Positions 549 through 33,754 of a stretch of 64,000 nt of DNA are shown one piece after another. The notes beneath the pieces are model-generated. The model saw only the letters and a program-made list of their open reading frames with translations, ran no database searches and had not been told where the DNA came from. Positions within the stretch are counted from its first letter, which is position 1, and each line of letters opens with the position of its first letter. The position numbers and the translations under genes were made by a program. The stretch spans positions 640,001 through 704,000 of the forward strand of contig CAVXKA010000001.1 of assembly GCA_963762255.1 (NCBI GenBank), read 5' to 3'. The stretch comes from Candidatus Eiseniibacteriota bacterium (GTDB taxonomy: Bacteria; Eisenbacteria; RBG-16-71-46; JABDJR01).

Positions 549-2043
549 CTATTCGAAGACGTGAACGTCTCCGCTGGCGTTACCGGTGAAGCTGTTCTGG
601 CTTTCGAGCGTGGTCGGATTCGGGTATTCCCCACCGCCTAGCGAAATCCCCCAGCCGCCGCTGTAGTTGATCTCGCAGCTCGTGATCGAGGGCAGCGCGT
701 CCTCGATCGACGATACTCTCGACCGCACCAATGCCCCCACCGTACTCGATCACGCAGTGCGCGAAACGCACCTGAGCGTCGACCACCGCACCGCTGATAT
801 AGATGTGCCGCCAGTCCCCCGGTTGCGGGTTGGTCTGCGCGCTGGTGAAGGTAATCGGATTGGCGACCGTGCCTTCGGCAATAAGGCCGGCGGAGACCGT
901 GTACCCGACATGTAGGTACGCATCGTCACCGAACTGGATCACCGTTCCGGGCTCGATCGTCACCACGGCGGTCCCCGTCTGGCTGCCGATGCCCACACCG
1001 TGGCCATCCGGTATGCGATACGGCACGCCGTGATCGCGCCAGGTGCCGCTCGTCTCGACGCCGCCATAGAACACCGTGATGGCGTCCTTGCCGGCCGCGT
1101 TGCCGGTGAAGCTGTTGCCCGCACCCATCTCGCGTATGTATTCGGGGTTGACCTCGAAGGGGTAGTCCCTGCAACCGGTGATGGTGTTGTTCGTGAATGC
1201 CGCCATGTGGGAGACCTGCTGCCAGAAGGTGATCCCCTTGCCGGCGCTGTGGCGGATTGTCGAATGGTCCATCTTCACGACCGCGCCAAAGTCGAGGAGG
1301 AGCGCCTGCTCGCCCTCGCGACCGGCGTATTCGATCGTGCAGTAGCTGAAGCGCGTCGTGGGAAGCGTGCTGTCGTGGAACGTGAAGCCGAACCAATCGC
1401 CGGGCGCCGCCGGGGTCTCGTTCGAGGTGAAGAGGATCGTCGAATCGGGCTTGCCGATGGCGATCAGGGCGCCGTCGCCCGCGCCGCCCCAGCCGCACAC
1501 GAAGCCCTTGTCCGTCTCGAAGCGCACGATGCAGCCGGGTTGAATGGTGAGCGTGGCACCGTTCTCGATGCCGATTTGCTCGGTCACGATGTGCGGGTTG
1601 CAGCAGGCGTACCAGATCTCGTTGGCGTCGATGTTCTCGGCGTGGTAGGTCGGCCCCGCGGGGCAGGGGCAGATCGTCACGGTCACCGTGGCGTCGCGCT
1701 CGTTGCCCGACGTGTCGATCGCCAGTGCGCGAAGGATGTGAACGCTGCCGCTGGCCAGGCCCGCGGCGTTCCACGTGTACTCGTAGACGTTGGACGCACC
1801 GCTGGCGTCCTCGCCGAGCTTTGTACCGTCGACGTAGAACTCGACCTTGGCGATCTCCACGTCGTCCGTCGCCTGCGCGCGAACGAGCACGGCGCTGGCG
1901 GGGACGGTAGATCCGTGGGTCGGCTGGATGAAGCTTACGGAGGGATCGGTCGTATCGTTCGGGTCGGTCCCCCCGTCGTCACCGTCGCAGGAGACGATGC
2001 ACAAGGCGGCACACAGGGTGAGAGGAATGAGAGCCCTGAACAT
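549..2043 (-). CDS. Lipoprotein with Ig-like (Big) domain and repeated beta-helix-type modules; frameshift near 715
   Basis: Signal peptide with lipobox (CIVSC); VEFYVDG...YTWN Ig motif; repeated ITFTS..PGDW..F.YCTIEYG units; C-terminus continues in ORF 549..740. Confidence 0.65.
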
Positions 2044-2274
2044 GGATCGAGGTCCTTTCCTTGACATCGCGATTGCGGCGTTACGATCGCGGTTCACCAA
2101 TAGGAGTGGAGGCTCGGATTCGGTTTCCGATCGCCTTCGGACGCGCGCAGTCTAGGCCACGACAACTCCGGCGTATAGTATTAAACAGTAAGAAAATAGA
2201 CCGCAATTGTCATCAGACAATATTTATCAATTCAGAGGCATTTCTCGGGATCAGGCGTCGCCGCCAGCGTGCGA

Positions 2275-3285
2275 CTATCGAACCGGTGCGCTCCGCTGCG
2301 ATCGCCTGCGCAGGGAGCCGAGGAACGCGAAGCGCCTCCGTCTGCCGAAACCGCCGACCCGCTTCTCGATCAACCGGACAACCAGAATCCACGTCACAAA
2401 CCCGAAGAACACCATGCCGAGACTGAACAGCGCATAGGAGACCCGCCAGTCCAGGCGGTCCGTCATCATGCTCCACTCGGACATACCGCCGATACTCGCG
2501 ATCAGGTTGAGGGGCAGAAACACGATGTTGATCAGCGTGAGATTCTTCAGCAGCACGTTCATGTTGTTGTTGACGATCGTCCCGCGGGCATCCATGAGGC
2601 CGCTGAGAACCGAGCTGTAGATGTGCGCTTGCCGCGAGGACTGGCGATTCTCCAGCACGATGTCATCCAGCAATTCGGTTTGTGCCTCGCTCAGAGCCAG
2701 CCGGCCGGCCATGTGCCGAAGCCGGTCCAGAACGGCGCCGTTCGCTTCGATGGCGTCCACGTAGTAGATCAAGCTCTCGCTGAGGGCGAACATCTGGAGC
2801 AGATACCGATTTTCCATGGACGTGGTGATCTTCTGCTCGAGCTCGGTGCTCAATTGCTTGATGACTCTCAAATGGCCGACGTAGTGGCGCACGGTGTGAA
2901 GCAGGCTCCCCAACAAGACGTCGGCCGGAGCGTTGGCTCCACGGAACTCTCTTGCCGAGAAGGGAATTCGGCCTTCATTCATGATGATGGCGAGGCGGTT
3001 CTCCCCGATGACGAACCCGACCGAGGACACTCCCAGTTGCAGCTGCTCGCCGACCTCCGTCTTCCTCGGAGTCTTCCAGATCATGAATACGTGGTCGGCC
3101 GAAGCCTCGAGTCGCGCCACCTCTTCGGAGTCGAGCGCCGAATCCACGTCATAGGCGTCGAGATCGAGATGCTCCATGAGGAAGGTCTTCTCCCGGTCGT
3201 CGGGCGCTTCGAAGACCAGGAGGTTCGCCTCTCTCTCGGCAGACTCGCGGATTACACCATTCTCCACCAGGAACAGCGTTTGCAT
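2275..3285 (-). CDS. corA: CorA-family Mg2+/divalent cation transporter
   Basis: NNNMNVLLKNLT...IGGMSE (variant of the GMN motif) followed by two TM helices. Confidence 0.8.
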   Translation of the reverse strand: MQTLFLVENGVIRESAEREANLLVFEAPDDREKTFLMEHLDLDAYDVDSALDSEEVARLEASADHVFMIWKTPRKTEVGEQLQLGVSSVGFVIGENRLAIIMNEGRIPFSAREFRGANAPADVLLGSLLHTVRHYVGHLRVIKQLSTELEQKITTSMENRYLLQMFALSESLIYYVDAIEANGAVLDRLRHMAGRLALSEAQTELLDDIVLENRQSSRQAHIYSSVLSGLMDARGTIVNNNMNVLLKNLTLINIVFLPLNLIASIGGMSEWSMMTDRLDWRVSYALFSLGMVFFGFVTWILVVRLIEKRVGGFGRRRRFAFLGSLRRRSQRSAPVR

Positions 3286-3345
3286 CTTGGACCCCCGCCT
3301 CGTGTTTGTAGGAGGAAGGTGGCGCGCGCCGACGATGGCGATCCG

Positions 3346-4293
3346 CTACTCTCCCAGGATCCAGGTTCCCGTCTTCCCCGCCAGCGCTTCCTTGATCGTC
3401 TCCGGCTTGGTGACGAGTCCCTTCCCCTTCGGGTTGGCTTCCAGGAACGCGATGATGGCTTCGATCTTCGGGCCCATGCTCCCGGACAGGAAATGCCCCT
3501 CAGCGAGGTACTTCTTCGCCTCGCCGAGTGTCATCGAGTCCAGCCACTTCTGGTCGGGCTTGTTGAAATTGACCGCCACCTTCTCCACCGCGGTCGAGAT
3601 CAGGAACACATCGGCGTGCAACTCCGCGGCGAGGAGGCTGCTCGCCCGATCCTTGTCGATGACGGCGAAGGTCCCCTTGATGTGCCCCTTCGCGTCCTTC
3701 ACCACCGGAATGCCGCCTCCGCCCACCGCGATCACGATGAGGCCGGCCTGGATCAAGTTCTTGATCGCGTCCAACTCCACGATCTCCAGCGGGGCGGGTG
3801 ACGCGATCATCCGCCGCCAGCCGCGGCCGGCGTCTTCCTTCACGATCCAACCCTGCTTCTCGAAGACTTCGGCGTTCTCCTTTGTGGTGAACCCGCCGAT
3901 ACCCTTGGTGGGATTCTTGAAGCCGGGGTCGTTGCCGTCCACTACGACCTGCGTCACCATCGCCGCGACCTGTCTCTGGATCCCGCGCTGCTTGAATTCG
4001 TTGAAGAGCGCGAGGGAGATCATGTAGCCGATCGATCCCTGGGTGTCCGCCCCGATCACGTCGAGCGGGGTGAAGTGGACTTCCGGGGCGGCCAGCTCGT
4101 TCCGCCGGAGGATGAAGCCCACCTGGGGGCCGTTGCCGTGGGTGACCACGACGTTCCACCCCTGTTCGATCATGTCGGCCACGTGCTTGCAGGTCTCTTC
4201 GACCGCGTGCACCTGCGATCCGACGTCCTCGTGCTGCTTATCGCTGATAAGAGAGTTGCCGCCGATGGCGACGACCGCCAGTTTTCCGCTCAT
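3346..4293 (-). CDS. arcC: Carbamate kinase
   Basis: AIGGNSL, THGNGPQVG, GGGGIPV, VIDKD and GSMGPK motifs. Confidence 0.95.
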   Translation of the reverse strand: MSGKLAVVAIGGNSLISDKQHEDVGSQVHAVEETCKHVADMIEQGWNVVVTHGNGPQVGFILRRNELAAPEVHFTPLDVIGADTQGSIGYMISLALFNEFKQRGIQRQVAAMVTQVVVDGNDPGFKNPTKGIGGFTTKENAEVFEKQGWIVKEDAGRGWRRMIASPAPLEIVELDAIKNLIQAGLIVIAVGGGGIPVVKDAKGHIKGTFAVIDKDRASSLLAAELHADVFLISTAVEKVAVNFNKPDQKWLDSMTLGEAKKYLAEGHFLSGSMGPKIEAIIAFLEANPKGKGLVTKPETIKEALAGKTGTWILGE

Positions 4294-4344
4294 GATGTGC
4301 TCCTTGGTACCGGCGGGGCCGGATGGGGGCGTCCGCGCGCCGTC

Positions 4345-5322
4345 CTACATCGTCAACGCCATGACCGCCTTCTGGGCGTGCATGCGGTTCTCGGCCTCGT
4401 CGTACACCACCGACTGCGGACCGTCCATCACGCCGTCGGTCACCTCGATGTTGCGATCCGCGGGGAGCGGATGCATGTAGATCGCGTCCGGCTTGGCCAG
4501 CTTCATGCGCCGCTCGTCGGTGATCCAGCTCGAGTACTTCTTGATGATCTTCGCGCCTTCCTCGGCGTCCGGTGTGTGCACCATCGCGCCCCACGACTTC
4601 GCGTAGACGATGTCGGCGTCCTTGAACGCCTTGTCCATGTCGTCCACCACCTCGAAGCCGGCGCCGAACTGCTTCGCCTGCGCGCGGGCCGCCTCCATGA
4701 CCTCCGGCATCAGCTTGAACTCCGGCGGATGCGCGAGCACCACGTCCATGCCGAACCGCGGCATCTGCAGGATGAGCGACTGCGGCACCGACATCGGCTT
4801 CTGGTACGAAGCCGCGTACGCCCACGAGACCACCATCTTCTTCCGGCGCAGATCGCGCCCCTTCTTCTCGATGATGGTCATGAGGTCGGCCAGGCACTGG
4901 AACGGGTGGTAGATGTCGCACTGCATGTTGAGCACCGGCACCCGCGACGCCTTGGCCACCGCGTTCAGGTAGCCGTTGCCGATCCCCCAGTCCACGTGGC
5001 GGATCGCGATGCCGTCGTAGTAGCGGCCGAAGATCTCGCCGATCTCCTTGGGCGTGTCGCCGTGGGAGATCTGGGTCGACTTGCTCTCGATGAATGCGCC
5101 GTGCCCGCCGAGCTGGGCCATCCCCGCCTCGAACGAGCCGCGCGTGCGCGTGCTGGAGAAGAAGAACAGCATCGCCAGCACCTTGTCGCGCAGGTAGGCG
5201 TGCGGCTCGCCGAGCGCCCGCTTGCGCTTCAGGTCGAACGCCACGTCCATGACGGTCTCGACCTCTTCCTTCGTGAAATCCAGGTCGCCGATCAGGTCGC
5301 GACCGTGCAGATAGGTTTGCAT
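4345..5322 (-). CDS. YgeW-like transcarbamylase (ornithine/aspartate carbamoyltransferase superfamily)
   Basis: SSTRTR, HPFQ and HPLP motifs; SWAYAASYQKPMSVPQ and AFKDADIVYAKSW resemble E. coli YgeW. Confidence 0.85.
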   Translation of the reverse strand: MQTYLHGRDLIGDLDFTKEEVETVMDVAFDLKRKRALGEPHAYLRDKVLAMLFFFSSTRTRGSFEAGMAQLGGHGAFIESKSTQISHGDTPKEIGEIFGRYYDGIAIRHVDWGIGNGYLNAVAKASRVPVLNMQCDIYHPFQCLADLMTIIEKKGRDLRRKKMVVSWAYAASYQKPMSVPQSLILQMPRFGMDVVLAHPPEFKLMPEVMEAARAQAKQFGAGFEVVDDMDKAFKDADIVYAKSWGAMVHTPDAEEGAKIIKKYSSWITDERRMKLAKPDAIYMHPLPADRNIEVTDGVMDGPQSVVYDEAENRMHAQKAVMALTM

Positions 5323-5359
5323 TTCCGTCTCCTTGCCGTCGGGGGGTTCCCCGCCGAAG

Positions 5360-6316
5360 CTATTCGCGAGCCCCCAGCACCAGCGCCAGAAGCGACATGC
5401 GCATCACGACCCCGTAGAACGCCTCCTGCCAGTAGCGCGACCAGCGGGTGATGTCCACGTCGGCCGGGATCTCGTCCATGCGCGGCAGCGAGTGGAGCAG
5501 GATGGCGTCCGACTTGGCCTTTGTGGTGAGGAGTTCGCGGGTGATCTTGTAGTTGGCGGGGGTGAGGCCCACGTCCTTCCCGGCGCGCTCGTCGCGGGAC
5601 TTCGTGTAGTCGGGTTGCACCACCGGCTCCACCAGGATGACGTCGGCGTCCGCGATCGCCTGCTCGACGTGCTCCGCCTCTTTGAAGTTCAGGCTGTAGG
5701 GCTTGAGCTCTTCCTTGAACTCCTTGGTGAGCGCCATGTCGGGCGGAGCCACGAAGGTGATCGGGCAGTCGAACTGGGTGAGCGCGTGGGCCAGCGAGTG
5801 CATCGTGCGCATGCGCATGTCGCCCACCGCGAGCCACTTCAGCCCGTCGATGCGACCCTTCTCCTGAAGCACGGTGTAGAGGTCGGTCAGGATCTGCGTG
5901 GGGTGCTCGCCCCAGCCGTCGCCGCCGTTGATGATCGGAATCGAGGACCACTTGGCCGCCTCGTGGGGCGCGCCCTGCTGAAAGTGACGCATGACGATCA
6001 CGTCGCCGTAGAACTCCAGCATCTTCACGGTGTCCTTGATGGACTCCTGGTAGAAATCGCCGGCGCGGGTCATCTTGGCGTCGGAGAAGCCGGTCACGTG
6101 CCCGCCCAGGCGGTGCATGGCCGCCTCGTGGGCGAGCCGCGTGCGGGTGGACGGCTGGTAGAACGCCGTCACCATCGTCTTCTCGCAGAGCATGTCGCTG
6201 TTGCGACGGCTCTTGGCGATGGGCTCGAGCGCCTTCGCCGTCTCGAACACGTGGAAGAACTCGTTTCGCTCAAAATCCTTGAGCGAGAGAATGTCGCGAC
6301 CCATGAAACTCTTCAC
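5360..6316 (-). CDS. Aspartate-carbamoyltransferase-like protein with divergent substrate loops
   Basis: FYQPSTRT, NGGDGWGEHPTQ and HSLPR motifs; GAGGAGG RBS before GTG 6316. Confidence 0.85.
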   Translation of the reverse strand: MKSFMGRDILSLKDFERNEFFHVFETAKALEPIAKSRRNSDMLCEKTMVTAFYQPSTRTRLAHEAAMHRLGGHVTGFSDAKMTRAGDFYQESIKDTVKMLEFYGDVIVMRHFQQGAPHEAAKWSSIPIINGGDGWGEHPTQILTDLYTVLQEKGRIDGLKWLAVGDMRMRTMHSLAHALTQFDCPITFVAPPDMALTKEFKEELKPYSLNFKEAEHVEQAIADADVILVEPVVQPDYTKSRDERAGKDVGLTPANYKITRELLTTKAKSDAILLHSLPRMDEIPADVDITRWSRYWQEAFYGVVMRMSLLALVLGARE

Positions 6317-6406
6317 TGCCGTACCTCCTCGGATCTCGTTCTGATGTCGCCGCGCGCCAAGACATGGGTCGCGCGGTCTCGAAAAGACGTCGCCAGGCAC
6401 CGCCTG

Positions 6407-6452
6407 GCCCCGTTTGCGGGGCAGGAGATGCCCCGTTTGCGGGGCAGGAGAT
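6407..6452. repeat. Perfect 23-bp tandem repeat x2, each unit a hairpin
   Basis: GCCCCGTTTGCGGGGCAGGAGAT at 6407-6429 and 6430-6452. Confidence 0.9.
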
Positions 6453-6528
6453 TCTATCAGGCTCAGAACCCGATGCAACCGCGGGTTTTGAGCAGGGCGC
6501 GGCGGGGCGCGTGTGCTATTCTGGCGCG

Positions 6529-7944
6529 GTGCGGCGCTTAGTATTGCATCGGCTCATGCTGGCGTGGGCCATTCCATTCGCCTTTGCTGCGTGCGAGCGC
6601 GAGACGATCTCGAATCCGCCCCCTCCGGACCTTTCGGATCGCGTCCCCCCCGCTGTGATCGGAGATCTCGTCACGAGTAGCTCCGGCGCGAGCACGGTGA
6701 CCGTCACGTGGACCGCATCCGGTGACGATTCGCTGGAGGGAACAGCCGCGCGCTATGACATTCGATACGCGCCGGGCGGCGACGCGTCGTGGGCGGAGAT
6801 GACCCCGATCCCGGTGGAGCGGACGCCGCCGGCTGCGGGCGCGCGCGACTCCATCGTGGTAACCGAGCTCTCTCCCATGACCACCTATTGCTTTCGCATG
6901 GCGATCGCCGACGAGGCCTCGAATTGGTCTCCGCCATCGGAGGCGGCCGTCGCCCGCACCTCCGCGGGGTGGGACGCCCTTGGAAGCGCGCCGAACGGGC
7001 CCGTGTACGCGATGCTCGTGGTCGCGAACGAACTCGTCGCGGCCGGCGACTTCACCGCCGCGGGAGAAACTCCGGCGCGCAGCGTCGCGCGCTGGAACGG
7101 CATTGCATGGGCGCCGCTCGGGTCGGGCCTGGACGGAGTCGTTCACTGTCTCGCCGTCTACCGGGGCTATCTTGTGGCCGGCGGACGGTTCATCGTTGCA
7201 GGCGGGGCCGCGGTCCACCGGGTGGCTCGATGGACCGGCGCGGTGTGGGAGCCTCTCGGTTTCGACGTCGACGACGAGCCGGGTGTCGTCTACGCACTTG
7301 TCCAGTACGGAGACGCGCTCATCGCAGGCGGCACGTTCACGACCGCGAACGGCGCGCCCGGGGACTACATCGCCGGCTGGGACGGCACGGCGTGGGGGCC
7401 GCTCGGCCCGGGCCTGGATGCCACCGTTCATGCGCTCGCGGTGCATGGGGGAGCGTTGATCGTAGGAGGAACATTCCGAGGCGCCGGCGGCGCGGACGCC
7501 CGGTTCGTGGCCAGATGGGACGGAAGCGGATGGAGCCCGATGGGCGCGGGCATGAACGACTCCGTCTTCGCCCTGCGCAGCCACCTGGGCGAGATGTTCG
7601 CCGGCGGTCACTTCGACATCGCCGACGGCGCTCGCACCAGCGCGGTCACCTCCTGGGACGGGTGGGGCTGGCAACCGTTGGGGCGGATCTCGCCATCAAG
7701 CGCCCACTGCCTCACCGTGCATCGCGGCTCGCTCGTCGCCGGCGGCACGTTCGAGGGAGCAACCGGCTCCGCGGTAGTACACGCGGTGGGTTGGTGGTCG
7801 GGCAGCCGATGGGAGCTGGTCGGACCGGGGCTCGACGGGGCCGTGAGCGCGATCGCCAGTTTCGACGGCGATCTCGTCGTGAGCGGCGAGTTCACTTCGA
7901 CCGGAGAGGCGCGAATCGGCCGCGTAGCGCGCTGGCGCGAGTAA
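6529..7944 (+). CDS. Lipoprotein with FN3 domain and beta-propeller repeats
   Basis: Lipobox FAAC; WTASGDD...YDIRY FN3; about 7 repeats of LxAGGxF...ARWxGxxWxxLG. Confidence 0.75.
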   Translation: MRRLVLHRLMLAWAIPFAFAACERETISNPPPPDLSDRVPPAVIGDLVTSSSGASTVTVTWTASGDDSLEGTAARYDIRYAPGGDASWAEMTPIPVERTPPAAGARDSIVVTELSPMTTYCFRMAIADEASNWSPPSEAAVARTSAGWDALGSAPNGPVYAMLVVANELVAAGDFTAAGETPARSVARWNGIAWAPLGSGLDGVVHCLAVYRGYLVAGGRFIVAGGAAVHRVARWTGAVWEPLGFDVDDEPGVVYALVQYGDALIAGGTFTTANGAPGDYIAGWDGTAWGPLGPGLDATVHALAVHGGALIVGGTFRGAGGADARFVARWDGSGWSPMGAGMNDSVFALRSHLGEMFAGGHFDIADGARTSAVTSWDGWGWQPLGRISPSSAHCLTVHRGSLVAGGTFEGATGSAVVHAVGWWSGSRWELVGPGLDGAVSAIASFDGDLVVSGEFTSTGEARIGRVARWRE

Positions 7945-7998
7945 GCGGCGAGCTGAAACGTGCGCCGGGCCGCCTTGCGTCGAGGTCGACCGCCCCGG

Positions 7999-9807
7999 CT
8001 ACTCCCAGCCGATCTTCCGGCCCCGGTTCTGCTCCTCGAGCCAGCTCAATAGCGGCCGGTAATACTCGACCATGGCCCGAGTGGAGAGTTCTTCGCCGGT
8101 GGCCTCGCGCAGGATCGTCCGCCAGTCGCGCGTCGCCCCGTAGCGCTGCATGCTCACGAGGAACGCGCCGACCTCCTTGTTTCCCGCATAGGTGCACCTG
8201 CGCGGATCCTGCTTGAGGATCTCACGCGCGATGTGGTCGTGCAGTTGGTATTGGATCACCGTGGCCAGCGCGTACGAGAAGTAATACGCCGGCGCATCGC
8301 TGATGTGGGTTTTCGTGGCGGCGTCGCAGAACTCCTCGCCACGAGACGCCGGCGGCGCCACACCCTGGAACTGTTCGACGTACTGCCACCAGCGGGCGTT
8401 CCACTGATCCGGCGGCATCTCGTGCGCGTAGTAGTCGGCCTCCCAGTGGGTCATCGTGCCCGACGCGAAGAACATGAAGGGGATCGTGGCGAGCGCGTCG
8501 CGCAGGAGAGGGCCCACGGTGTCGACCGGGGCGCCCGCCGGCAGGAGCCCGAGCGACTCGAGATACGGCGTCTGCCGCGCCGCGACCTCGGCGACCCCGG
8601 CGAAAGCTTCGTGGAAAGCCGGGCTGGCGCCGTCCCGCAGGAGCGGCGGCACTTCGGGGCGGTTGTACGCAAGATCGTAGTACCCGTGGCCGAGTTCGTG
8701 GTGCGCCGTGCCGAACCACCACTCGTCGGGCTCCACGCTCATGAGGGAGCGGATATCGCGCTCGAGGTCGAGGTTCCAGCACGAGGCATGGGTGTTCTTC
8801 TTGCGGGTATCCGGCGGTTTCACCGGATAGAGGTCTGACAGCGTCCAGAAGGACTCGGGGAGCGGCTCACGCCCGATGCTCGTGTAGAAGCTCTCCGCCG
8901 TCTTCACGATCCACTCTGCGGAGTGGCCCTTGAACGCCGCGGCGAGTTCCGGCGTCGCCACCATCCCGTTCCACTCCTGTGCCCACCGGTTCGGAATCCA
9001 ATGCGCGGGAATGCGGTCCGGCACCGGCTGGCCGTACTTCTTCGCCAGCTCGTACTTGGCCCAGGTGTAGAGCTGAAGGTATAGGGGCCGCAGATCCTGC
9101 AGGAACGCTTCGTGGAGCGCGAGCATATCCGCGGTGTTCATGTCGTGAGACGCCGCCTGGAGCGTGAAGTAGTCGGTGTAGCCCAGCTCGCGGGCCACGC
9201 CGTTGCGAAGCCCTTGCAACTTCACGAGCCCGGGCTTGAGCGCGGGGCCGGACTCCTTGGAAGCCTCCCACACCGCAAGGCGGTCTTTGAGATCGACAAG
9301 CGCCACGAGCCGTTCGTCGATCTCGTTGGTGGTGATGGGGCGCCCCTTGAGCTTGAACTCGAACGCATTGAGCGTCGAGGCCTGCTGCGTCTCGGCATCG
9401 ATGCGCGCCGTGACCAGCTCCGGGTTGGTCATCGGGCCCTCGGCGGCGTTGAGGAGAGCGTGCTTGAGCTGGCGCACGGTGAGCGAGTCCAGTTCCGCCT
9501 CGTGGGTGAGGAGATCCTTGGCCTCGTTGATGAGCGCCGGGTTCCCGGTGAAAGCGGCCCGAGCCTTGTTGGCCGCCGCCGAGGCCGCGTCGTGCGCCGG
9601 AGTCACGTCGGTGGCCGCATCCCAATCGGCGCGCTGGGCGACGGTGTAGAGCGCCTGATAGCTCGCGTTGACCAGGACGAGGAAGCGATCCGCGCGTTCC
9701 TGGACCGCGGACTTGGCGGCCGACGGCGCGGGGCCCTTCTGCGCGGTGCACGCCGAGACGGCGAGGATCGGCACGGCAACGAGAGCGAATGCGATGCGGC
9801 GGTTCAT
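7999..9807 (-). CDS. M2-family (ACE-like) zinc peptidyl-dipeptidase lipoprotein
   Basis: Lipobox VSAC; HHELGH, FHEA, WNARWW and DAATKTHI motifs; GGAGG RBS before ATG 9807. Confidence 0.9.
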   Translation of the reverse strand: MNRRIAFALVAVPILAVSACTAQKGPAPSAAKSAVQERADRFLVLVNASYQALYTVAQRADWDAATDVTPAHDAASAAANKARAAFTGNPALINEAKDLLTHEAELDSLTVRQLKHALLNAAEGPMTNPELVTARIDAETQQASTLNAFEFKLKGRPITTNEIDERLVALVDLKDRLAVWEASKESGPALKPGLVKLQGLRNGVARELGYTDYFTLQAASHDMNTADMLALHEAFLQDLRPLYLQLYTWAKYELAKKYGQPVPDRIPAHWIPNRWAQEWNGMVATPELAAAFKGHSAEWIVKTAESFYTSIGREPLPESFWTLSDLYPVKPPDTRKKNTHASCWNLDLERDIRSLMSVEPDEWWFGTAHHELGHGYYDLAYNRPEVPPLLRDGASPAFHEAFAGVAEVAARQTPYLESLGLLPAGAPVDTVGPLLRDALATIPFMFFASGTMTHWEADYYAHEMPPDQWNARWWQYVEQFQGVAPPASRGEEFCDAATKTHISDAPAYYFSYALATVIQYQLHDHIAREILKQDPRRCTYAGNKEVGAFLVSMQRYGATRDWRTILREATGEELSTRAMVEYYRPLLSWLEEQNRGRKIGWE

Positions 9808-9884
9808 GGGGGCCTCCTTGATCGGCGTAGTATAGCCGGTTCGACGCCCAGATGGCGCCGCTCCGCCGCGTGGCGCGTTTGCGG

Positions 9885-11301
9885 CTACGGCCCCCGAAAA
9901 CGCACTTCCGCCTCGCGCTCGCGCCCGCTCGCCGAGTCCGTCACCGCGAACTCGACCGGGAACGGGACGCTGAACGTTCCGCGCGGGATCGTGGCGAAGA
10001 TCGGGATGTCGGCATTGCCCATCGCACCGACGAACACGCGCTTCTGGGGCACGATGAACTCGGGCTCGGGCGTGCCCTCCGGCGGTTCGTGCTTCGACAT
10101 CCAGAAAGAAGACGCGGTCCCGCGCCTCCTTGTTCTCGATGCGCAGCGTGTACAGGTTGCGGATCGTCGTCTCCTCCAGAACGTAGGGCATCCCCTTCGC
10201 GCGAAGTACCTTGACCTCGAAGGGGTCGCGTCTCGATGCGGCCCCCGCGAAAACGGTGAGCCCGATCAATGCCAGCACCGCGTACGCGACGGAGCGAGGG
10301 CGCACCAGCTTCCGCCGCCGGCCTTCCTCGAACCCCCGCTTGGAGTCGTAGCGGACGAGCCCGCGCGGCTTCCCGAGCTTGCCCATGATCTCGTCGCACG
10401 CGTCCACGCAGTTCGCGCAGCCGATGCATTCCATCTGCAGGCCGTTGCGGATATCGATTCCGGTCGGGCACACGACCACGCAGCGGTGGCAGTCCACGCA
10501 GTCGCCTCCCTCATCGCTCACTTTCGAGCGGGGCTCTCCCCGCTTGCCGTCGTAACCCACGATGATGGTGTCGCTGTCGATGAGCGCGGACTGGAGCCTC
10601 CCGTACGGGCAGATCACGAGACACGTCTGCTCGCGGAACCATGCATAGTTGAAGAACATCACCGCGGTCCAGAACATGGTCCAGAAGAACGCCGACGCGT
10701 GCTGGGCGGGGCTCGACGTGAGAGCGTGCTTGAGCTCGCGCACGGGGATGAAATAGGAGAGGAAGGTGTGCGCGATGGCCAGCGACAGGACCAGGAAGAT
10801 CGCGTGCTTCAGGATCTTCCGCCATGCCTTGTCCCGGGTCCAGGGACCCAGGTTCCGGCGGATGCGCGCGGTGCGCTGACCCTCGATGGCCCGCTCGATT
10901 CGCCGGTAGACGGCTTCCAGAAAGACCGTCTGCGGACACGCATAGCCGCACCAGGCGCGGCCGAAAAGCGACGCGAGGACGAACAGCCCGAAGCCCACGC
11001 CGGAGACGAGGAAGAACATCAGGTAGAAGTCCTGATTGCCGAAGCTCATGCCGAAGAGATACGCCGCCCGTCCGGGAAGATCGATGTGGACGGCGGGATG
11101 GCCGTTGACGGTGATCCAGGGAAGAAGCGCGTACACCGCGATGAGGACCGCGAACGCGATGTTCTTGCGGACCTGCCAGCGTCCCTTCACGTCGGCGGGA
11201 TGAAGGAAGTTCCGCGACCCGTCCGCATTGATCGTGTAGACGGTGTCGAGACCGGGCCAGCGAACCTCGGCGCGCTTGATCGGCGCCTTCGTTTCGGACA
11301 T
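9885..11301 (-). CDS. ccoG: cbb3 oxidase accessory ferredoxin CcoG/FixG, frameshift near 10090
   Basis: WCGYACPQ, CPYGRLQ, CVDCHRCVVVCP and CIGCANCVDAC motifs; C-terminus continues in ORF 9885..10100. Confidence 0.9.
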
Positions 11302-11314
11302 GCGAATCAGACCT

Positions 11315-11890
11315 CTACTCGGTCGGTTCCGGCTCCCCCTGCGGCGCCTTGCCGGGCAGGTTCTTCCCCTTGATGGTGAGCACGTAAGCCGTCACGTTCT
11401 GCACGCGTTGAGGGCCGAGCTGGTTCCCCCACGCCACCATCCCCTTGTCGGGAACCCCGTCGGTCACCGTCTTCAGGATGTCCAGCGGCTTGCCGCCGTG
11501 AATCCAATACGCGTCGGTGAGGTTGGGGCCCACGTTCCCCTCGCCGTTCTGACTGTGGCAGACGACACAGAATTGCTCGAAGACCTGCCGCCCCGCGGCC
11601 GCGCGATCGGGCACCTGGCTCATGAGGAGGAGCGCGTCGTCGGTCATCTCCTGACCGGATGCCCGCGCGAGTTGCGCCTCCGCCGCCCGCGTCACCTCCG
11701 CCTGGTAGCGCTCGTCCAGCGTCGGCGCCGCCCCGAACGTCTGATGATAGGCCCAGTAACCGAAGGCGAACACGATGCTTGCGAACAGAATCGTGAGCCA
11801 CCAGTTGGGGAGCCGGTTGTCGTACTCCTGGATTCCGTCGTAGTCGTGCTCGAAGACGCGGTCCTGCTGGTATTTGTCTTCGGTGCTCAC
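11315..11890 (-). CDS. ccoP: cbb3-type cytochrome c oxidase subunit III (monohaem)
   Basis: HDYDGIQEYDNRLPNWW; CVVCH; GPNLTD. Confidence 0.92.
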   Translation of the reverse strand: MSTEDKYQQDRVFEHDYDGIQEYDNRLPNWWLTILFASIVFAFGYWAYHQTFGAAPTLDERYQAEVTRAAEAQLARASGQEMTDDALLLMSQVPDRAAAGRQVFEQFCVVCHSQNGEGNVGPNLTDAYWIHGGKPLDILKTVTDGVPDKGMVAWGNQLGPQRVQNVTAYVLTIKGKNLPGKAPQGEPEPTE

Positions 11891-12081
11891 CGCGTGCCCC
11901 CTCCGTCGTGTTCCGGCGCGTCGTCCTCGAGCGGCAGCGCCGCCACGTGATCGAAGGACTTGCGCTTGATGATGCCCCGCGCGAGATAGATCAGCACCCC
12001 CGCGAAGAACGCCATGAAGAGGATGAAGGCGAGCAGGGGCCAGTGGAGATGTCGGCTCTCGGCCAGGAACTGCTGAAACAT
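11887..12081 (-). CDS. ccoQ: cbb3 oxidase subunit IV
   Basis: Single TM helix with AALPLED tail, located between ccoO and ccoP. Confidence 0.8.
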   Translation of the reverse strand: MFQQFLAESRHLHWPLLAFILFMAFFAGVLIYLARGIIKRKSFDHVAALPLEDDAPEHDGGGTR

Positions 12082-12083
12082 CG

Positions 12084-14465
12084 CTACTGCCCGGCCGCGG
12101 GAGTCGGAGCCCCCACCACCGGCGCCGGAGCTCCCGCCGCCGGCGTCGCCTGCACCGCCGCCGTCACCGGCTGCGGGCCGCGTCCGAGCCGCTGCAAGTA
12201 GGCGATGAGCGCGACGAGATCGCTATCCGCATCCACCTTCACGTCCTGCGTCGCCAGGTCGGCGCGGATCAACTCCCCTTGACTCGTCGCCGTGGCCGCC
12301 GCCGTCGCGATCTCCGCGTCGGCGTAGGGAACGCCCAGCGTCCTCATCACCTTGAGTTTCTTGGCCAGCCCCCCCAGATCCACCTTGCCGGTCTTCATGA
12401 ACGCATACGACGGCATGTTGGAGCCCGGCGAGGTCGAGCGCGGGTCCATGAGGTGCTGATAGTGCCAGAGGTTCGGGTACTTGCCCCCCTCCCGGTGCAG
12501 GTCGGGCCCGGTGCGCTTCGATCCGAACTGGAACGGGTGGTCGTAGATGAACTCCTCGAGGCGCGAGTAGGCGCCGTAGCGCAACGTCTCGGCGCGAAAC
12601 GGCCGGATCATCTGACTGTGGCAGTTGTAGCATCCCTCCCGCACGTAGATGTCGCGCCCGGCCAGCTCGAGCGGGCTGTAGGGCTGCTGGCGAAACGGCG
12701 AAGCGGCGAGGCTCGGCATCGGGTCCTTCTGGCGGATGACGAGGCTCGGAATCAGCTCGGCGATGCCACCGGCCAGGATCGCGAACAGCACGAGGAACGT
12801 GAAGGCGAGCGGCTTCCCTTCGAGGATGTGATGCCAGCTTCGCCCCTCCGGCTGCCGCCGACCTGCCATGAAGTACGCCACCACCACCAGGACCAGCAAG
12901 ACCGCGAACGCCAGCACCGCCTTCGTGATCGACGAGATCGCGAACAGCGCGGCGAACACCACGACAGCCACCGCCAGGAGCACGGGCGCGCCGCCGAGCA
13001 CCTGCCAACTCGTGGGCTGGATCGCGGCGGCCGGAACCACGACGTTCGCCTCGGCGTTGACGGCCTTGCCGGCGCGGATGGTGGCGAGGAGGTTCACCGT
13101 CATCATCACGAACCCGGCGAAGTACATGAGGCCGCCGATGAGGCGCATGTTCCACAGGAAGCGCGCGGAGCGGAGTCCCTCCACGAAGTCGGGGTACTTG
13201 AGGAACCCCTCGCCGTCGAGCGCCCGCCAGAAGAGGCCCTGGTTCACTCCGCTGATCCACATCGCCACCACGTATAGAAGAATCCCGAAGGTCCCGATCC
13301 AAAAGTGCGCGTCGGCCATGCGGGTGGAGAAGAGCTTCGTGCCCCAGAGCCGGGGCACCAGCCAGTAGAGCATCCCCGCGGCCATGAACCCGTTCCAGCC
13401 GAGCGCGCCGGCGTGCACGTGCCCGATGATCCAGTCGGTGTAGTGGGCGAGCGAGTTCACCGCCTTGATCGAGAGGAGCGGCCCCTCGAACGTGGACATC
13501 CCGTAGAAGGTGACGGCCACGATGAGGAACTTCACCACCGGATCGGTGCGGAGCTTGTCCCACGCGCCGCGCAGGGTGAGAAGTCCGTTCAGCATGCCGC
13601 CCCAGGACGGGGCCCAGAGCATGAGGCTGAAGACCATGCCGAGGCTCTGCGCCCAGACGGGGAGCGCGGTGTTCAGGAGGTGATGCGGCCCCGCCCAGAT
13701 GTAGAGGAAGACGAGCGACCAGAAGTGGACGATGGAGAGCCGATAGGAATAGACCGGGCGTCCCACCGCCTTGGGGATGAAGTAGTACATGATCCCCAGG
13801 ATCGGGGTGGTGAGGAAGAACCCCACCGCGTTGTGCCCGTACCACCACTGCACGAGCGCGTCCTGCACGCCCGCGTAGACCGGATAGCTGTGGACGAGGC
13901 TCGTCGGGATCTGGATGTTGTTGACGATGTGCAGCACCGCGATGGTGACGATGGTGGCGATGTAGAACCAGATCGCCACGTAGAGGTTCTTCTCGTTGCG
14001 GATCGCCAGGGTCCAGAAGAAGTTGATCCCGAAGATCACCCAGACCACGGCGATCAGGATGTCCACCGGCCAGATCAGCTCGGCGTACTCCTTCCCCTGC
14101 GTCAGGCCCAGCGGGATCGTGAGCGCGGCGCAGACGATGATGAGCTGCCAGCCCCAGAAGTTGACGCGGCTCAAGAGATCGGACGCCATCCGCGTCTTGA
14201 GGAGCCGCTGCGTCGAGTAGTAGATGCCGGCGAACATCATGTTGCCGACGAAAGCGAAGATGGCGGCATTGGTGTGAAGCGGGCGGAGCCTGCCGAAGGA
14301 GAGCCAGGGCACGCCGAAATTCACCTGCCAGAAGACGAGCTGGGTGGCGATCAGCACCCCGAGGAGCGTCGCCACCAGAGCCCAGACCATCGTGGCGAGG
14401 ACGAAGTTCCTGGTGATCCCGTCGTCATAGACGATGTGCCGGGTCTGGACGGTTCCGGTCTGCAT
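12084..14465 (-). CDS. ccoNO: Fused cbb3 oxidase subunits I and II
   Basis: GRLRPLHTN, WWYGHNAV, WAGPHH, IGHVH; then EGCYNCHSQMIRP and GSKRTGPDL. Confidence 0.95.
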   Translation of the reverse strand: MQTGTVQTRHIVYDDGITRNFVLATMVWALVATLLGVLIATQLVFWQVNFGVPWLSFGRLRPLHTNAAIFAFVGNMMFAGIYYSTQRLLKTRMASDLLSRVNFWGWQLIIVCAALTIPLGLTQGKEYAELIWPVDILIAVVWVIFGINFFWTLAIRNEKNLYVAIWFYIATIVTIAVLHIVNNIQIPTSLVHSYPVYAGVQDALVQWWYGHNAVGFFLTTPILGIMYYFIPKAVGRPVYSYRLSIVHFWSLVFLYIWAGPHHLLNTALPVWAQSLGMVFSLMLWAPSWGGMLNGLLTLRGAWDKLRTDPVVKFLIVAVTFYGMSTFEGPLLSIKAVNSLAHYTDWIIGHVHAGALGWNGFMAAGMLYWLVPRLWGTKLFSTRMADAHFWIGTFGILLYVVAMWISGVNQGLFWRALDGEGFLKYPDFVEGLRSARFLWNMRLIGGLMYFAGFVMMTVNLLATIRAGKAVNAEANVVVPAAAIQPTSWQVLGGAPVLLAVAVVVFAALFAISSITKAVLAFAVLLVLVVVAYFMAGRRQPEGRSWHHILEGKPLAFTFLVLFAILAGGIAELIPSLVIRQKDPMPSLAASPFRQQPYSPLELAGRDIYVREGCYNCHSQMIRPFRAETLRYGAYSRLEEFIYDHPFQFGSKRTGPDLHREGGKYPNLWHYQHLMDPRSTSPGSNMPSYAFMKTGKVDLGGLAKKLKVMRTLGVPYADAEIATAAATATSQGELIRADLATQDVKVDADSDLVALIAYLQRLGRGPQPVTAAVQATPAAGAPAPVVGAPTPAAGQ

Positions 14466-14479
14466 ACGTGAAGAGTCTC

Positions 14480-14650
14480 CTATGTCTTCTGGGAATCGGC
14501 CGGCGGAGATGGATCGTCCTCGTCGAGCGGCAGAAGCGACAACCGGTCGCCGTGCTCGAAATCTCCTTCGCGCACCCGCTTGAATAGGAAGATGAGCGCG
14601 GCCGCCACCAGGATGAGGCTCGCGAACACGGTGATCACTAGGACATCCAC
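14480..14650 (-). CDS. ccoS: cbb3 assembly protein CcoS/FixS
   Basis: 56 aa, one TM helix then GDFEH...LLPLDED; position between ccoI and ccoN. Confidence 0.8.
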   Translation of the reverse strand: MDVLVITVFASLILVAAALIFLFKRVREGDFEHGDRLSLLPLDEDDPSPPADSQKT

Positions 14651-17001
14651 GCGAGCCTCCGTCCGGAGAGCCGGAACGAGGTGAGGGTGACCACGGACAC
14701 CGAACTCACCGGCATCAGGATAGCCGCCACCACCGGGGTCACGAGACCGAGGTAGCACAGGACCAGAGCGAGGGCATTGTACGCGATGGCGAGGGTCAGA
14801 TTCCCCCAAACAACGCTTCGCAACCGGCGGGCGCCCAGAAGCGCACGGCGGACCGCGGCCACGCCCTCGCCCAGGAAGTAGAAATCGGCGCGGCTCGGCA
14901 GGGACGGATGGTCCACCGCGGGGGTGGCTGCGCACGTCGCGGCCTCCAGGCCGGGGCCGTCGTTGAGCCCGTCGCCCACCATCAGGGTGTCGCGGCGGTC
15001 CACCGAGCGGATCCACTCCGCCTTGGCCTCGGGGGTCATCCCGCCGTGTACGCGTTCGCGGGGCACACCGAGGCGCCCCGCCACCGCGAGCACCTTGCCC
15101 GGCGAGTCCCCGCTCAACACGTACACCTCGTAGCCCGCTTCTCCAAGCCGGCGCACCTCTTCCTCCGCGTCGGAGCGGACCTGCTCCTCGAACGTGAAGA
15201 CGGCCAGCGTCCGCCCGTCCGCCGTGAAGGCGGTCTCCGCGCGGTTGCGATGCTCGTCGAAGGCGGGCCGGCCGAGCCGATACTCGTGCCCGTCGACCGT
15301 CATCGCGAGCCCCTGCCCCGCGGTCTCCGTCACTTCGCGATCGGCCGCCACCGACACGAGCGGGTCCGCGACGCGGAGCGCCTCGGCGAGCGCCCGACTC
15401 ACCGGGTGGTTGCTGCGAGCGGTGAGATCGAAGAGCGCCGCGCGATCGCCTGCGGCGAGGTCGGCCAATGTCTCGGCCGATTCGGCGGAGAGTTCCAGCC
15501 GGCCGAGCGTCAAGGTGCCGGTCTTGTCGAAGATGACCTTGCGCACGCCGAGCGCTCGATCCATGAACCCACCGCCGCGCACGAACACTCCGCGCTTGCG
15601 CAGCGCCAGGTGCATGAGCTCGTGGGCGAGCGGCGTGGCGAGACCGAGCGCGCAGGGACAGGTCACCACCAGCACCGCCACCGTGACCTGCACCGCCTTG
15701 TCGAATCCCCGCCCCACCCAGAGCGCGAATCCGAGCGCGGCCAGCGCAAAGACCGCGGTCACGTAGATCGCGCTGACCCGCCGCCACCAGCGCTGGCCCT
15801 CGGCGCCCGACCCGTCCCGCGCCACCGACGGCGAACCCAGAAGATCGTTGAGGTTCGAGGTCGCGAAGTCCTCGCCCGCCGCCGCGCGCATGGTGGTGTG
15901 CCCCGCGTTGATCGCGCCTGCGGGGAGCATCTCTCCCGCGTCCACGCCGCGCACGTCGGACTCGCCGGTGATCCAGTCCAGCGCGACCTCGGCGGGGTGC
16001 TCGACGAGAATCGCGTCCACCGGCACGAAATCGCCGGGCACGATCCAGAGCTCGTCGCCGCGGCGGAGATCGGCGACCGGAATCGACTCGAGCGCGCCGT
16101 CGCGAAAGCGCCGCGCGTAGAGGTTGTCGATCCCGGTGTCGGCGAGAAGCGCGTTGCGGTTGCGCTCGAGCAGGAACTCCTGGAGCCAGCGCCCGATCAG
16201 CATGAGCGCGACGAAGATCGTGACGGTGTCGAAATAGGCGGCCTCGGGGCCGAACTTCAGATAGGAATAGGTCGATCCGGCGAACGCGAGGAGGATGCCG
16301 ACCGCGATGGGCAGGTCGAGGTGGGCGAGGCCTCGGCGAAGGCCCAGCGCGGCCGCCTTGAAGAACACCCATCCCCCGACGCTCACCGATACCAGCGCGA
16401 GCGTGAAGTTGAGCTTTCCGAAAAGCGCGTAGAGCGCGCCCTCGTCGGGGGCCAGGCCCAAGTAATACGAGAGGCTGAAGATCATCACGTTCATCGCCGC
16501 CGCGACGGAGATACCGAGCCGCACGAGGAGTTCGGCGGACTTGCGCGCGGCCGTCTTGCGGCTGGGGCCGAAGCGGTAGCCGAAGCGTTCCGCCTCGGCG
16601 AGCCACGCGCGCAGATCGCCCTTGGCGGGGATCCAGGCCAGGTCGGCCTTGCCGAGCGAGGGGTTGATGCGCAGGTCGAGCCCCCCGTCGTGGCGCCGGA
16701 AGAGTTCCTCGAGAATCCACACGCAGGCCGCGCAGTGGATGCCCTGCACGTCGAGGGTCAACCGGCGCGCCGCGTTGGGATCGCCGGCAGCGGGCATGAG
16801 CGCGTCGAGCCACGCGAACGAGCCGGCGCGCGGTCCGGAGGGCGGCGTGACCGAGCCCCGGCGCAGATCGTAGTAGCGCTCGAGCCCTTCCTCATGGATG
16901 AGCGCGTAGACGCGCTCGCATCCGCCGCAGCAAAAGGTCTCGTTGCGGCGGCGCTGCACCGCGGTCAGCGGGAGCCCGCAGTGAAGGCACGTCTCCCGCA
17001 T
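14638..17001 (-). CDS. ccoI: Cu-translocating P1B ATPase CcoI/FixI
   Basis: CxHC...CCxGC N-terminus, HCAAC, TGES, CPC, DKTGT and GDGLND motifs. Confidence 0.92.
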   Translation of the reverse strand: MRETCLHCGLPLTAVQRRRNETFCCGGCERVYALIHEEGLERYYDLRRGSVTPPSGPRAGSFAWLDALMPAAGDPNAARRLTLDVQGIHCAACVWILEELFRRHDGGLDLRINPSLGKADLAWIPAKGDLRAWLAEAERFGYRFGPSRKTAARKSAELLVRLGISVAAAMNVMIFSLSYYLGLAPDEGALYALFGKLNFTLALVSVSVGGWVFFKAAALGLRRGLAHLDLPIAVGILLAFAGSTYSYLKFGPEAAYFDTVTIFVALMLIGRWLQEFLLERNRNALLADTGIDNLYARRFRDGALESIPVADLRRGDELWIVPGDFVPVDAILVEHPAEVALDWITGESDVRGVDAGEMLPAGAINAGHTTMRAAAGEDFATSNLNDLLGSPSVARDGSGAEGQRWWRRVSAIYVTAVFALAALGFALWVGRGFDKAVQVTVAVLVVTCPCALGLATPLAHELMHLALRKRGVFVRGGGFMDRALGVRKVIFDKTGTLTLGRLELSAESAETLADLAAGDRAALFDLTARSNHPVSRALAEALRVADPLVSVAADREVTETAGQGLAMTVDGHEYRLGRPAFDEHRNRAETAFTADGRTLAVFTFEEQVRSDAEEEVRRLGEAGYEVYVLSGDSPGKVLAVAGRLGVPRERVHGGMTPEAKAEWIRSVDRRDTLMVGDGLNDGPGLEAATCAATPAVDHPSLPSRADFYFLGEGVAAVRRALLGARRLRSVVWGNLTLAIAYNALALVLCYLGLVTPVVAAILMPVSSVSVVTLTSFRLSGRRLAWMS

Positions 17002-17006
17002 TCGGT

Positions 17007-17759: not shown

Positions 17760-17825
17760 GGCCCGGAATGGTATCCTCTTCCCCCCGCGAGCGCATCCCC
17801 CAGGCTCCGGGATGGGAGCCGTACC

Positions 17826-21474: not shown

Positions 21475-22916
<1,442 letters not shown>

Positions 22917-22920
<4 letters not shown>

Positions 22921-30805: not shown

Positions 30806-30833
30806 CGCGGCGCCCTCCCCGAGTGTTCGCGCG

Positions 30834-33607: not shown

Positions 33608-33754
33608 GGCCGACCTCCGTAAGAATGTGAGACGAAGCATACCGCATGAGCGGCGCAGGGGGATTCGACAACCGCCATGCGGGTGAGTAGGCTTCCGGTT
33701 GCCGGGCCGCACCGAGGCCCCGCGCTCGCGTCGACGCACCCTCAGGGAGGACCG

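Follow-up and report, generated by a model that had tools for sequence, protein, structure and literature searches.

Why would a bacterium keep two different carbamoyltransferase genes next to one carbamate kinase gene? The question is raised by three adjacent genes, here called TC_A, TC_B and arcC, in a stretch of 64,000 nucleotides (nt; the window, G000:C1:640001-704000) from a Candidatus Eiseniibacteriota bacterium whose 4.14 Mb genome is assembled in three contigs and is 93.6% complete. Our answer, to which we give a probability of about 0.55, is that the triad is a catabolic operon for the phosphorolysis of ureido groups and forms the ATP-yielding end of the reductive (2,8-dioxopurine) urate pathway, both carbamoyl groups being turned into ATP. 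The link of the module to purine breakdown is well supported, and double phosphorolysis with two ATP per urate is plausible from the gene content; motifs and gene context are our grounds for inferring which substrates are used, which cleavage comes first and that two ATP result. In the pathway as published, YgeW and YqeA gain ATP from 2,3-diureidopropionate, YgeY hydrolyses the remaining ureido group and YgeX deaminates diaminopropionate (bioRxiv 10.1101/2025.04.24.650524, PMC12507026, PMC12990295).

The triad and its two transferases

The three co-directional open reading frames (ORFs) are separated by 37 and 51 nt and show a strong coding signal, with a GC content at third codon positions (GC3) of 0.88-0.96:

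5360-6316, minus strand: TC_A, a carbamoyltransferase ('pseudo-ATCase') of the aspartate transcarbamylase (ATCase) lineage, 318 amino acids, GTG start; assigned by profile scores, motifs and tree
4345-5322, minus strand: TC_B, a compact YgeW-like carbamoyltransferase of the knotted group, 325 amino acids; assigned by alignment, motifs and tree
3346-4293, minus strand: carbamate kinase of the arcC/yqeA type, 315 amino acids; assigned by TIGR00746 and NF009007

Coding signal, family profiles and the short gaps confirm the operon of an ATCase-like gene, a YgeW-like gene and arcC that an earlier note had read from the letters of this DNA; neither pyrC nor pyrI adjoins TC_A, as that note had also observed. 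The kinase exceeds both of its profile cut-offs (TIGR00746, 364 against 358; NF009007, 381 against 266), is 50% identical to E. coli YqeA and is the sole carbamate kinase copy that tblastn finds in the genome. The start of TC_A at 6316 is supported by a GAGGAGG box 7 nt upstream, by the ATG of the orthologue from L015, the second Eisenbacteria locus, with which it aligns, and by the length of public orthologues (317-318 amino acids).

TC_A carries the OTCace_N and OTCace domains, and ATCase is its best-scoring family: it passes the cut-off of TIGR00670 (252 against 237), falls below that of NF002032 (222 against 263) and has as its closest solved structure the P. abyssi ATCase 1ML4 (230 bits). 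All the carbamoyl-phosphate motifs for which the protein had been singled out are present (STRTR, RH, HPTQ and the Arg equivalent to E. coli R167). The second-substrate side is altered. HSLP, invariant in 80/80 orthologues, replaces the HP[LG]P of ATCase, and the 80s loop reads TRAGDFYQES against SLGKKGET in E. coli, with a Tyr aligned to K84; in the HMMER alignment to 1ML4, VEPVVQPDY stands at the xTRxQxERF site of ATCase, with R229 replaced by Pro and Q231 by Val. K84 and R229 are aspartate-site residues of E. coli ATCase. According to Shi et al. 2015 (PMC4581275), the RxQxER of the ATCase 240s loop binds aspartate. The 80s and 240s specificity loops of TC_A are invariant in 80/80 orthologues. 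TC_A has a V-Q-P at V233-Q234-P235, whose register depends on whether HMMER or MAFFT makes the alignment. In a maximum-likelihood tree of 15 sequences, the TC_A orthologues form their own clade on the ATCase side (support 100/100).

The same tree places the TC_B orthologues with the AOTC-like protein of this genome and YgeW (97/94), in a group whose internal branching order it leaves open. TC_B stays under every curated cut-off, be it for ornithine transcarbamylase (OTC; 263 against 306 and 260 against 281), AOTC (250 against 288) or YgeW (TIGR03316, 190 against 500; NF005538, 198 against 453). It resembles E. coli YgeW at 36-38% identity and shares with it the motifs QCDIxHPxQ, SWAYxxSYxKPxSVPQ (the Pro-rich loop, SWAYAASYQKPMSVPQS in TC_B opposite TWAYSPSYGKPLSVPQG in YgeW), KSW and YMHxLPAD, the last including HxLPAD. 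Unlike YgeW, it lacks the terminal helices (the N- and C-terminal extensions) and the 120s and 240s insertions, all of which are gaps in its alignment (325 against 396 amino acids); its 120s loop is 4 residues longer than that of P. furiosus OTC and shorter than that of YgeW. The ornithine motifs DxxxSMG and HCLP are absent, with YAKSWGAM and HPLP in their place. The structure model (pLDDT 90.6) has a generic transcarbamylase fold, and Foldseek scores both types alike, with a TM-score of 0.90 to unknotted OTC and 0.87 to knotted AOTC.

Neither TC_A nor TC_B contains the motifs (T/S)RWQTTG and HDLP, which Shi et al. (2015, PMC4581275) give for 2,3-diaminopropionate transcarbamylase (DPTCase). 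Since the carbamoyl-phosphate residues of both proteins and the specificity loops of TC_A are invariant across orthologues, both enzymes should, as far as conservation tells, be catalytically active with defined substrates.

Could the triad simply consist of ordinary genes, TC_A being PyrB, TC_B a catabolic ornithine carbamoyltransferase and arcC the last member of an arginine deiminase pathway? Public databases do name TC_A relatives aspartate carbamoyltransferase, and TC_A does pass TIGR00670. By tblastn, however, the genome has five transcarbamylase genes, TC_A, TC_B and the following three:

C3:597965-598918 (L003 6965-7918), contig 3: canonical pyrB (RVQKER, HPGP), followed by a dihydroorotase gene
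contig 2: argF with DVWASMG and HCLP
contig 1: AOTC-like gene between argB and argD, in an arg cluster

Because the genome has its own pyrB-pyrC, argF and AOTC-like gene, TC_A and TC_B are surplus to arginine and pyrimidine synthesis. The earlier note had supposed a ureido-removing transferase distinct from the pyrimidine enzyme, and the genome indeed has a canonical pyrB besides TC_A; from its motifs and paralogues we read it as not the pyrimidine enzyme. The absence of RxQxER and HPLP from TC_A and of DxxxSMG and HCLP from TC_B points the same way, as does the conserved context described below, which is one of purine catabolism. An arginine-deiminase-like arcA gene exists at C1:380942-382084, scoring 306 bits against a cut-off of 489, and lies about 260 kb away. 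We hold the reading as ordinary genes to be very improbable, motifs and paralogues already contradicting it. Should the arcA-like gene be functional, the single carbamate kinase may serve arginine catabolism too. Agmatine deiminase was not found in the genome.

Purine genes in the genome and in related loci

The window carries the following further genes:

33677-35167, plus strand: D-hydantoinase (HyuA-like), which probably supplies the diureido substrate; TIGR02033 568 against 393, 40% identity to E. coli HyuA
26089-27324, minus strand: SsnA-like amidohydrolase, Pfam Amidohydro_1; TIGR03314 254, below the cut-off of 455.5, 33% full-length identity to E. coli SsnA
27318-33600, minus strand: molybdenum hydroxylase block of four genes of xanthine dehydrogenase (XDH) type; TIGR03311 and partial family matches
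31286 to about 33600, minus strand: PucD-like Mo subunit, transcribed first in the block; partial PucD match
30834-31289, minus strand: XdhC 2Fe-2S subunit; partial XdhC match
29957-30805, minus strand: XdhB FAD subunit; partial XdhB match
27318 to about 29945, minus strand: fused enzyme that matches the selenium-dependent XDH family; TIGR03311 931 against 830
22917-24407, minus strand: cysK-like fold-type II enzyme dependent on pyridoxal phosphate (PLP), 496 amino acids; profile annotation, overlaps the thrC-like gene
21475-22920, minus strand: thrC/dehydratase-like fold-type II PLP enzyme, 481 amino acids; profile annotation

Elsewhere in the genome, XdhD (55% identity to E. coli XdhD) is encoded with YgfM on contig 2. 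YgeY, whose absence from the window had been pointed out before, is lacking above cut-off in the whole genome as well (best match 52 bits against 321.5; best tblastn identity 23%), and YgeX is likewise missing, its single match scoring 29 bits against a cut-off of 276. The two overlapping PLP enzyme genes (21475-24407) are possible stand-ins for YgeX; of their products, the cysK-like one shares 50% identity with a 512-residue cysK-like protein (cluster 38) of the related loci. No allantoinase exceeds its cut-off in the genome, where the best match to that family is the window hydantoinase itself (239 against 358 bits).

Two features of this region deserve separate mention. The minus-strand ORF of 1233 codons at 31286-34987 is partly spurious: its C-terminal 770 or so residues match XDH Mo subunits, and its N-terminal 460 or so codons overlap the plus-strand hydantoinase gene, as is typical of long false ORFs in high-GC DNA. 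A cluster for a cbb3-type cytochrome oxidase (ccoG, ccoP, fused ccoNO, P-type ATPase) occupies window positions 7999-17796; the organism respires oxygen at low tension yet has a route for purines that is known from anaerobes.

Scanning one genome from each species gave matches in 597 stretches, 541 of them with a TC_A relative, and the best 80 were kept as loci. ORFs of these loci and the window (81 sources) were clustered, and cluster representatives were annotated. The loci come mostly from Anaerolineae or other Chloroflexota, with one from Eisenbacteria and two from Verrucomicrobiia. Where at least 5 kb was available 3' of TC_A (63 loci), an intact TC_B is present in 60 and a TC_B in two pieces in one more (L009), and arcC is present in 56. 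The typical Chloroflexota order is 8-oxoguanine deaminase, adenine deaminase, GntR/UTRA regulator, YgeY, TC_A, TC_B, arcC, Bmp/PnrA-type ABC transporter and thrC-like PLP enzyme, and the neighbours recur as follows:

8-oxoguanine deaminase: 50/81 sources
adenine deaminase: 49/81 sources
GntR/UTRA regulator: 66/81 sources
YgeY (TIGR03526, 476 against 321.5): 28/81 sources
Bmp/PnrA-type (nucleoside) ABC transporter: 34-40 of 81 sources
thrC-like PLP enzyme: 22/81 sources
cysK-like PLP enzyme of 512 amino acids, 3' of arcC or TC_A in several loci: 10/81 sources

Both Eisenbacteria loci have the triad alone, with none of the other conserved neighbours. One Verrucomicrobia locus (L041) is the most telling, its order being SsnA, thrC-like PLP enzyme, XDH, canonical YgeW, TC_A and cysK-like PLP enzyme; its YgeW is 67% identical to that of E. 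coli and well above the family cut-off (TIGR03316, 622 against 500). Because TC_A adjoins either TC_B or a true YgeW, we regard these two as interchangeable partners, TC_B being the YgeW equivalent, and TC_A as a second, distinct enzyme of the same pathway. The window hydantoinase, SsnA-like and XDH-type genes, the XdhD-YgfM pair, the purine deaminases, nucleoside transporter and YgeY of the relatives and the YgeW of L041 together bear out the connection to the 2,8-dioxopurine route that had been drawn from the triad.

Whole-genome co-occurrence was scored with profile cut-offs in 50 of the 80 module genomes, loci from longer contigs being favoured. A hydantoinase exceeds its cut-off in 45/50, YgeX in 1/50 and YgeY in 19/50, leaving 31/50 without YgeY; as the genomes are metagenome-assembled, the absences of YgeY and YgeX are soft evidence. 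YgeY therefore does not always accompany the module. The anti-correlation with ygeY that the earlier note had suggested is not clean: YgeY is missing here and in those 31 genomes, and against this it stands directly 5' of TC_A in 28/81 sources.

The close association of TC_A and TC_B would also fit a mixed oligomer, or a pair with one non-catalytic partner, that performs one YgeW-like phosphorolysis between its two proteins: TC_A and TC_B lie side by side in 60-61 of 63 loci, and their products are 73-94% identical across phyla against about 61% for arcC. Every carbamoyl-phosphate residue is nevertheless kept in both proteins, in L041 TC_A is paired with a canonical YgeW, L053 and L050 have TC_A but no TC_B, and E. 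coli YgeW and YqeA, with no second carbamoyltransferase, made ATP in vitro according to bioRxiv 10.1101/2025.04.24.650524. The rates of change within Eisenbacteria, given next, likewise disclose no special constraint, and we consider the mixed oligomer a distinctly unlikely explanation.

Median identity of the related loci to the window is 88% for TC_A, 82% for TC_B and 61% for arcC, and TC_A is 85-90% identical in all 80 loci. The true PyrB of this genome shares 89% identity with its counterpart in the other Eisenbacteria genome, 59% with the Verrucomicrobia one and 37-38% with those of three Chloroflexota. Extraordinary purifying selection on TC_A, which the 88% across phyla against 37-38% for PyrB could suggest, was dropped as an explanation, the pace of TC_A being about that of PyrB within Eisenbacteria. 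Between the two Eisenbacteria genomes, the proportions of nonsynonymous (pN) and synonymous (pS) differences are 0.065 and 0.42 for TC_A and 0.076 and 0.44 for PyrB. Because the two genes evolve alike there, the cross-phylum identity of TC_A appears better explained by lateral spread of the module together with ordinary constraint. Synonymous differences come close to saturation, with pS of 0.57-0.65 in the comparison of the related loci with the window and 0.57-0.72 against Chloroflexota, so the spread would not be recent.

Several further observations concern the module in its relatives. In a class-level sample (301 genomes of one Chloroflexota class), 146 TC_B matches are listed at 67-94% identity, a few genomes being listed twice. 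Some Anaerolineae have a further TC_B-like paralogue group, 54-55% identical to TC_B (G135:C9:5534-6511, G092:C125:129-1106 and others), which sometimes shares a genome with a 90% TC_B orthologue. The ygeY gene directly 5' of TC_A is split into two frames at L011 8686-9874 (G007:C2:87588-88776) and at G041:C15:214179-215307, and TC_B is split at L009 10972-11945; these splits could reflect gene decay or assembly indel errors. G007 is a large-contig assembly (with a contig of 3.1 Mb), in which indel errors could be common. A conserved ORF of about 758 codons follows arcC, between the kinase and the nucleoside transporter genes (L006 13216-15492, cluster 24; 16/81 sources), and has no Pfam or NCBIfam match.

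At the locus itself, a CorA-like gene lies 60 nt 3' of the triad; because it clusters with no ORF of the 80 related loci, it lies outside the conserved module. Ahead of the operon we read from the sequence:

6392-6460, minus strand: leader of the operon, a tandem 23-nt repeat followed by a terminator-like stem-loop

The repeat consists of two tandem copies of a 23-nt unit (TCTCCTGCCCCGCAAACGGGGC and one variable base), each with a small hairpin, and the stem-loop with its T run (6408-6392) lies about 75 nt ahead of the TC_A start codon. Such a leader could act as an attenuator. Locus L015, from the other Eisenbacteria genome, does not share it, an Rfam search of window positions 2000-8000, leader included, gave zero matches, and a promoter scan found no sigma-70-like site.

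One or two phosphorolytic steps

In the mechanism we favour, urate would be converted to 2,3-diureidopropionate by XdhD-YgfM, encoded elsewhere in the genome, and by the SsnA-like amidohydrolase and the hydantoinase of the window. TC_B, as a trimmed enzyme of YgeW type, would then release one ureido group phosphorolytically, in the form of carbamoyl phosphate. TC_A, derived from ATCase with a rebuilt second-substrate pocket, would cleave the remaining N-carbamoyl group with phosphate, most likely the 2-ureido group of 3-amino-2-ureidopropionate, a compound analogous to carbamoyl-aspartate. Carbamate kinase would turn both carbamoyl phosphates into two ATP. Since the genome lacks the YgeY hydrolase and the YgeX lyase, the diaminopropionate would be left to the two PLP enzymes that accompany the module.

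The proposed division of labour draws on analogy. AOTCase and SOTCase, the kin of YgeW, take N-alpha-acylated ornithine and act at its omega-amino group; such a preference would suit the 3-ureido group of an N-alpha-carbamoyl acid. A derivative of ATCase would suit an N-alpha-carbamoyl acid that bears something other than a carboxylate at the beta position, consistent with the replacement of K84 and R229 in TC_A.

Several points weigh against this reading. One is that YgeY is co-transcribed directly 5' of TC_A in 28/81 sources and exceeds its cut-off in 19/50 genomes. Because YgeY and both transferases make three enzymes for two ureido groups, TC_A is not a simple replacement of YgeY; where they co-occur, YgeY may act on another regio- or stereoisomer or when phosphate is scarce, or TC_A may act on another substrate.

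The specificity pocket of TC_A is a second point. In the MAFFT alternative, EPVVQPDY is an insertion of eight residues and the next seven residues of TC_A, TKSRDER, fall opposite TRVQKER, so the pocket may keep Lys/Arg and may bind an anionic substrate. The earlier note had held that RxQxER is replaced by EPVVQPDY. The canonical motif is gone in either alignment, and that part stands; the placing of EPVVQPDY at the site follows from HMMER alone, and in the MAFFT register other residues would line the pocket. The AlphaFold model of TC_A is weak in just these parts, with a mean pLDDT of 70.6 and values below 50 at residues 80-91, 232-255 and 276-293, the specificity loops.

The remaining points concern the pathway around the triad. 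The dearomatising reductive step was not clearly identified, YgfK-like matches in the genome being partial. Between the triad and the other purine genes of the window are 16-29 kb of DNA, which include the cbb3 oxidase genes. At 93.6% completeness a gene may be missing from the assembly, and an unrelated hydrolase could replace YgeY. Finally, two published groups disagree on which ureido group YgeW removes (PMC12990295). A candidate for YgfK, an ORF at C1:599.6-602.2k, was set aside, a MobA-like domain being all that was found in it.

The YgeY pattern is also what would be expected if the operon is purine-linked and makes ATP while TC_A acts on something other than the second group of diureidopropionate: N-carbamoyl-beta-alanine, carbamoyl-aspartate, allantoate or ureidoglycine, or an earlier ring-opened intermediate. 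One ATP per urate would then be gained, and YgeY or another hydrolase would take the second group. Besides YgeY, which lies directly 5' of TC_A in 28 loci and is present in 19/50 genomes, it counts for such a substrate that the hydantoinase family TIGR02033 serves pyrimidine breakdown too, according to its family description, that Shi et al. (2015, PMC4581275) mention a catabolic ATCase and beta-alanine transcarbamylases among possibilities still open, and that a related pseudo-ATCase has been proposed as a ureidoglycine carbamoyltransferase (PMC4016543). The genome nevertheless has no allantoinase above cut-off, TC_A has HSLP and not the HPLA of the ureidoglycine carbamoyltransferase (UGTCase) group, and its conserved surroundings consist of purine deaminases, SsnA, XDH and YgeW, with no pyrimidine genes among them; YgeY, moreover, is missing from 31/50 genomes and from the source genome. 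We judge a different substrate for TC_A unlikely, though it deserves a hearing before the other alternatives, and retain double phosphorolysis of diureidopropionate as the favoured explanation.

Known systems and meaning

The nearest characterised counterpart is the YgeW-YqeA system of E. coli and Clostridium sporogenes, in which a carbamoyltransferase of the knotted group likewise adjoins carbamate kinase and is linked to XdhD, SsnA and HyuA. Ureido cleavage with phosphate for ATP, known there, would be common to both. The present system differs in having two carbamoyltransferases against one and, compared with the E. coli pathway, in a genome without YgeY and YgeX, in two other PLP enzymes and in genes scattered over about 30 kb. 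The ureido-removal part of the pathway is known to vary, because C. difficile has a hydrolase in place of YgeW (PMC12507026).

The closest published relative of TC_A is a pseudo-ATCase of Nocardioides sp. JS614, reported to adjoin a ygeW homologue, xdhABC and hyuA (Barba, Dutoit, Legrain and Labedan 2013, PMC4016543). Compared by published motifs and context, TC_A resembles it in having a true PyrB alongside, in STRT and HPTQ, in HSLP for HPLP and in the lack of RxQ; TC_A likewise stands beside a YgeW-type gene (TC_B, or canonical YgeW in L041), with XDH and hydantoinase genes in the window. The text of PMC4016543 gives the Nocardioides group no function and no link to carbamate kinase, which sets it apart from TC_A. 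That text calls the single Nocardioides protein subgroup 2, and in the accompanying Table 1 the motifs of 'pseudo-ATCase 2' are degenerate (H[ST]LP, GX[SC]) and those of 'pseudo-ATCase 3' fixed (HSLP, VXP); the numbering of groups 2 and 3 in the table may be swapped relative to the text. TC_A has HSLP and, in a register that varies with the alignment, a V-Q-P that may answer to VXP.

The same paper describes a ureidoglycine carbamoyltransferase of Rubrobacter xylanophilus (Rxyl_2847), proposed to cleave one ureido group of allantoate, a diureido acid, with phosphate (PMC4016543). It is like TC_A in being ATCase-derived, catabolic, beside carbamate kinase and part of purine degradation, and unlike it in having HPLA and an oxidative uricase/allantoinase context, whereas TC_A has HSLP in a genome where no allantoinase exceeds its cut-off. 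With the arginine deiminase pathway the proposed operon would share an unfavourable ureido phosphorolysis pulled by carbamate kinase to ATP; it differs in its substrate, in a TC_B without DxxxSMG and HCLP, and in two transferases feeding one kinase.

The literature searched contains no description of a two-transferase variant, the 2013 account of the pseudo-ATCase coming closest; supplementary trees and neighbourhood data (Barba, Li et al.) lay outside the search. According to Li et al., Chloroflexota clusters differ in the reductase step, and the networks shown there are coloured by PF00185, so paralogues are not told apart. Catabolic ATCase-like enzymes are treated as an open question by Shi et al. 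2015 (PMC4581275).

Tentatively, and with rather less assurance than we give to the role of the triad itself, we suggest a widespread environmental form of anaerobic purine fermentation that turns each of the two carbamoyl groups of urate into ATP, so that every purine would yield two ATP by substrate-level phosphorylation. It would have spread laterally to Eisenbacteria and Verrucomicrobia, would include the first catabolic enzyme of the ATCase lineage to act on N-carbamoyl-2,3-diaminopropionate, and would have YgeX replaced by two unstudied PLP enzymes. The present genome, in three contigs and 93.6% complete, with both transferases and neither YgeY nor YgeX, is a clean natural test case for it. 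The module might also help to decide which of the two ureido groups is taken by YgeW, a partner of ATCase descent being best suited to an N-alpha-carbamoyl acid. If the reading is true, a family now labelled pyrB by curated models and in public sources, with relatives of TC_A in at least 541 stretches, would gain a function. Work on gut bacteria resolved the reductive urate pathway only in 2025 and gave it one step that yields ATP. Adding a second phosphorolysis would, if true, double the energy from purines, a difference that would matter for slow-growing fermenters of soil and sediment, where the module is common.

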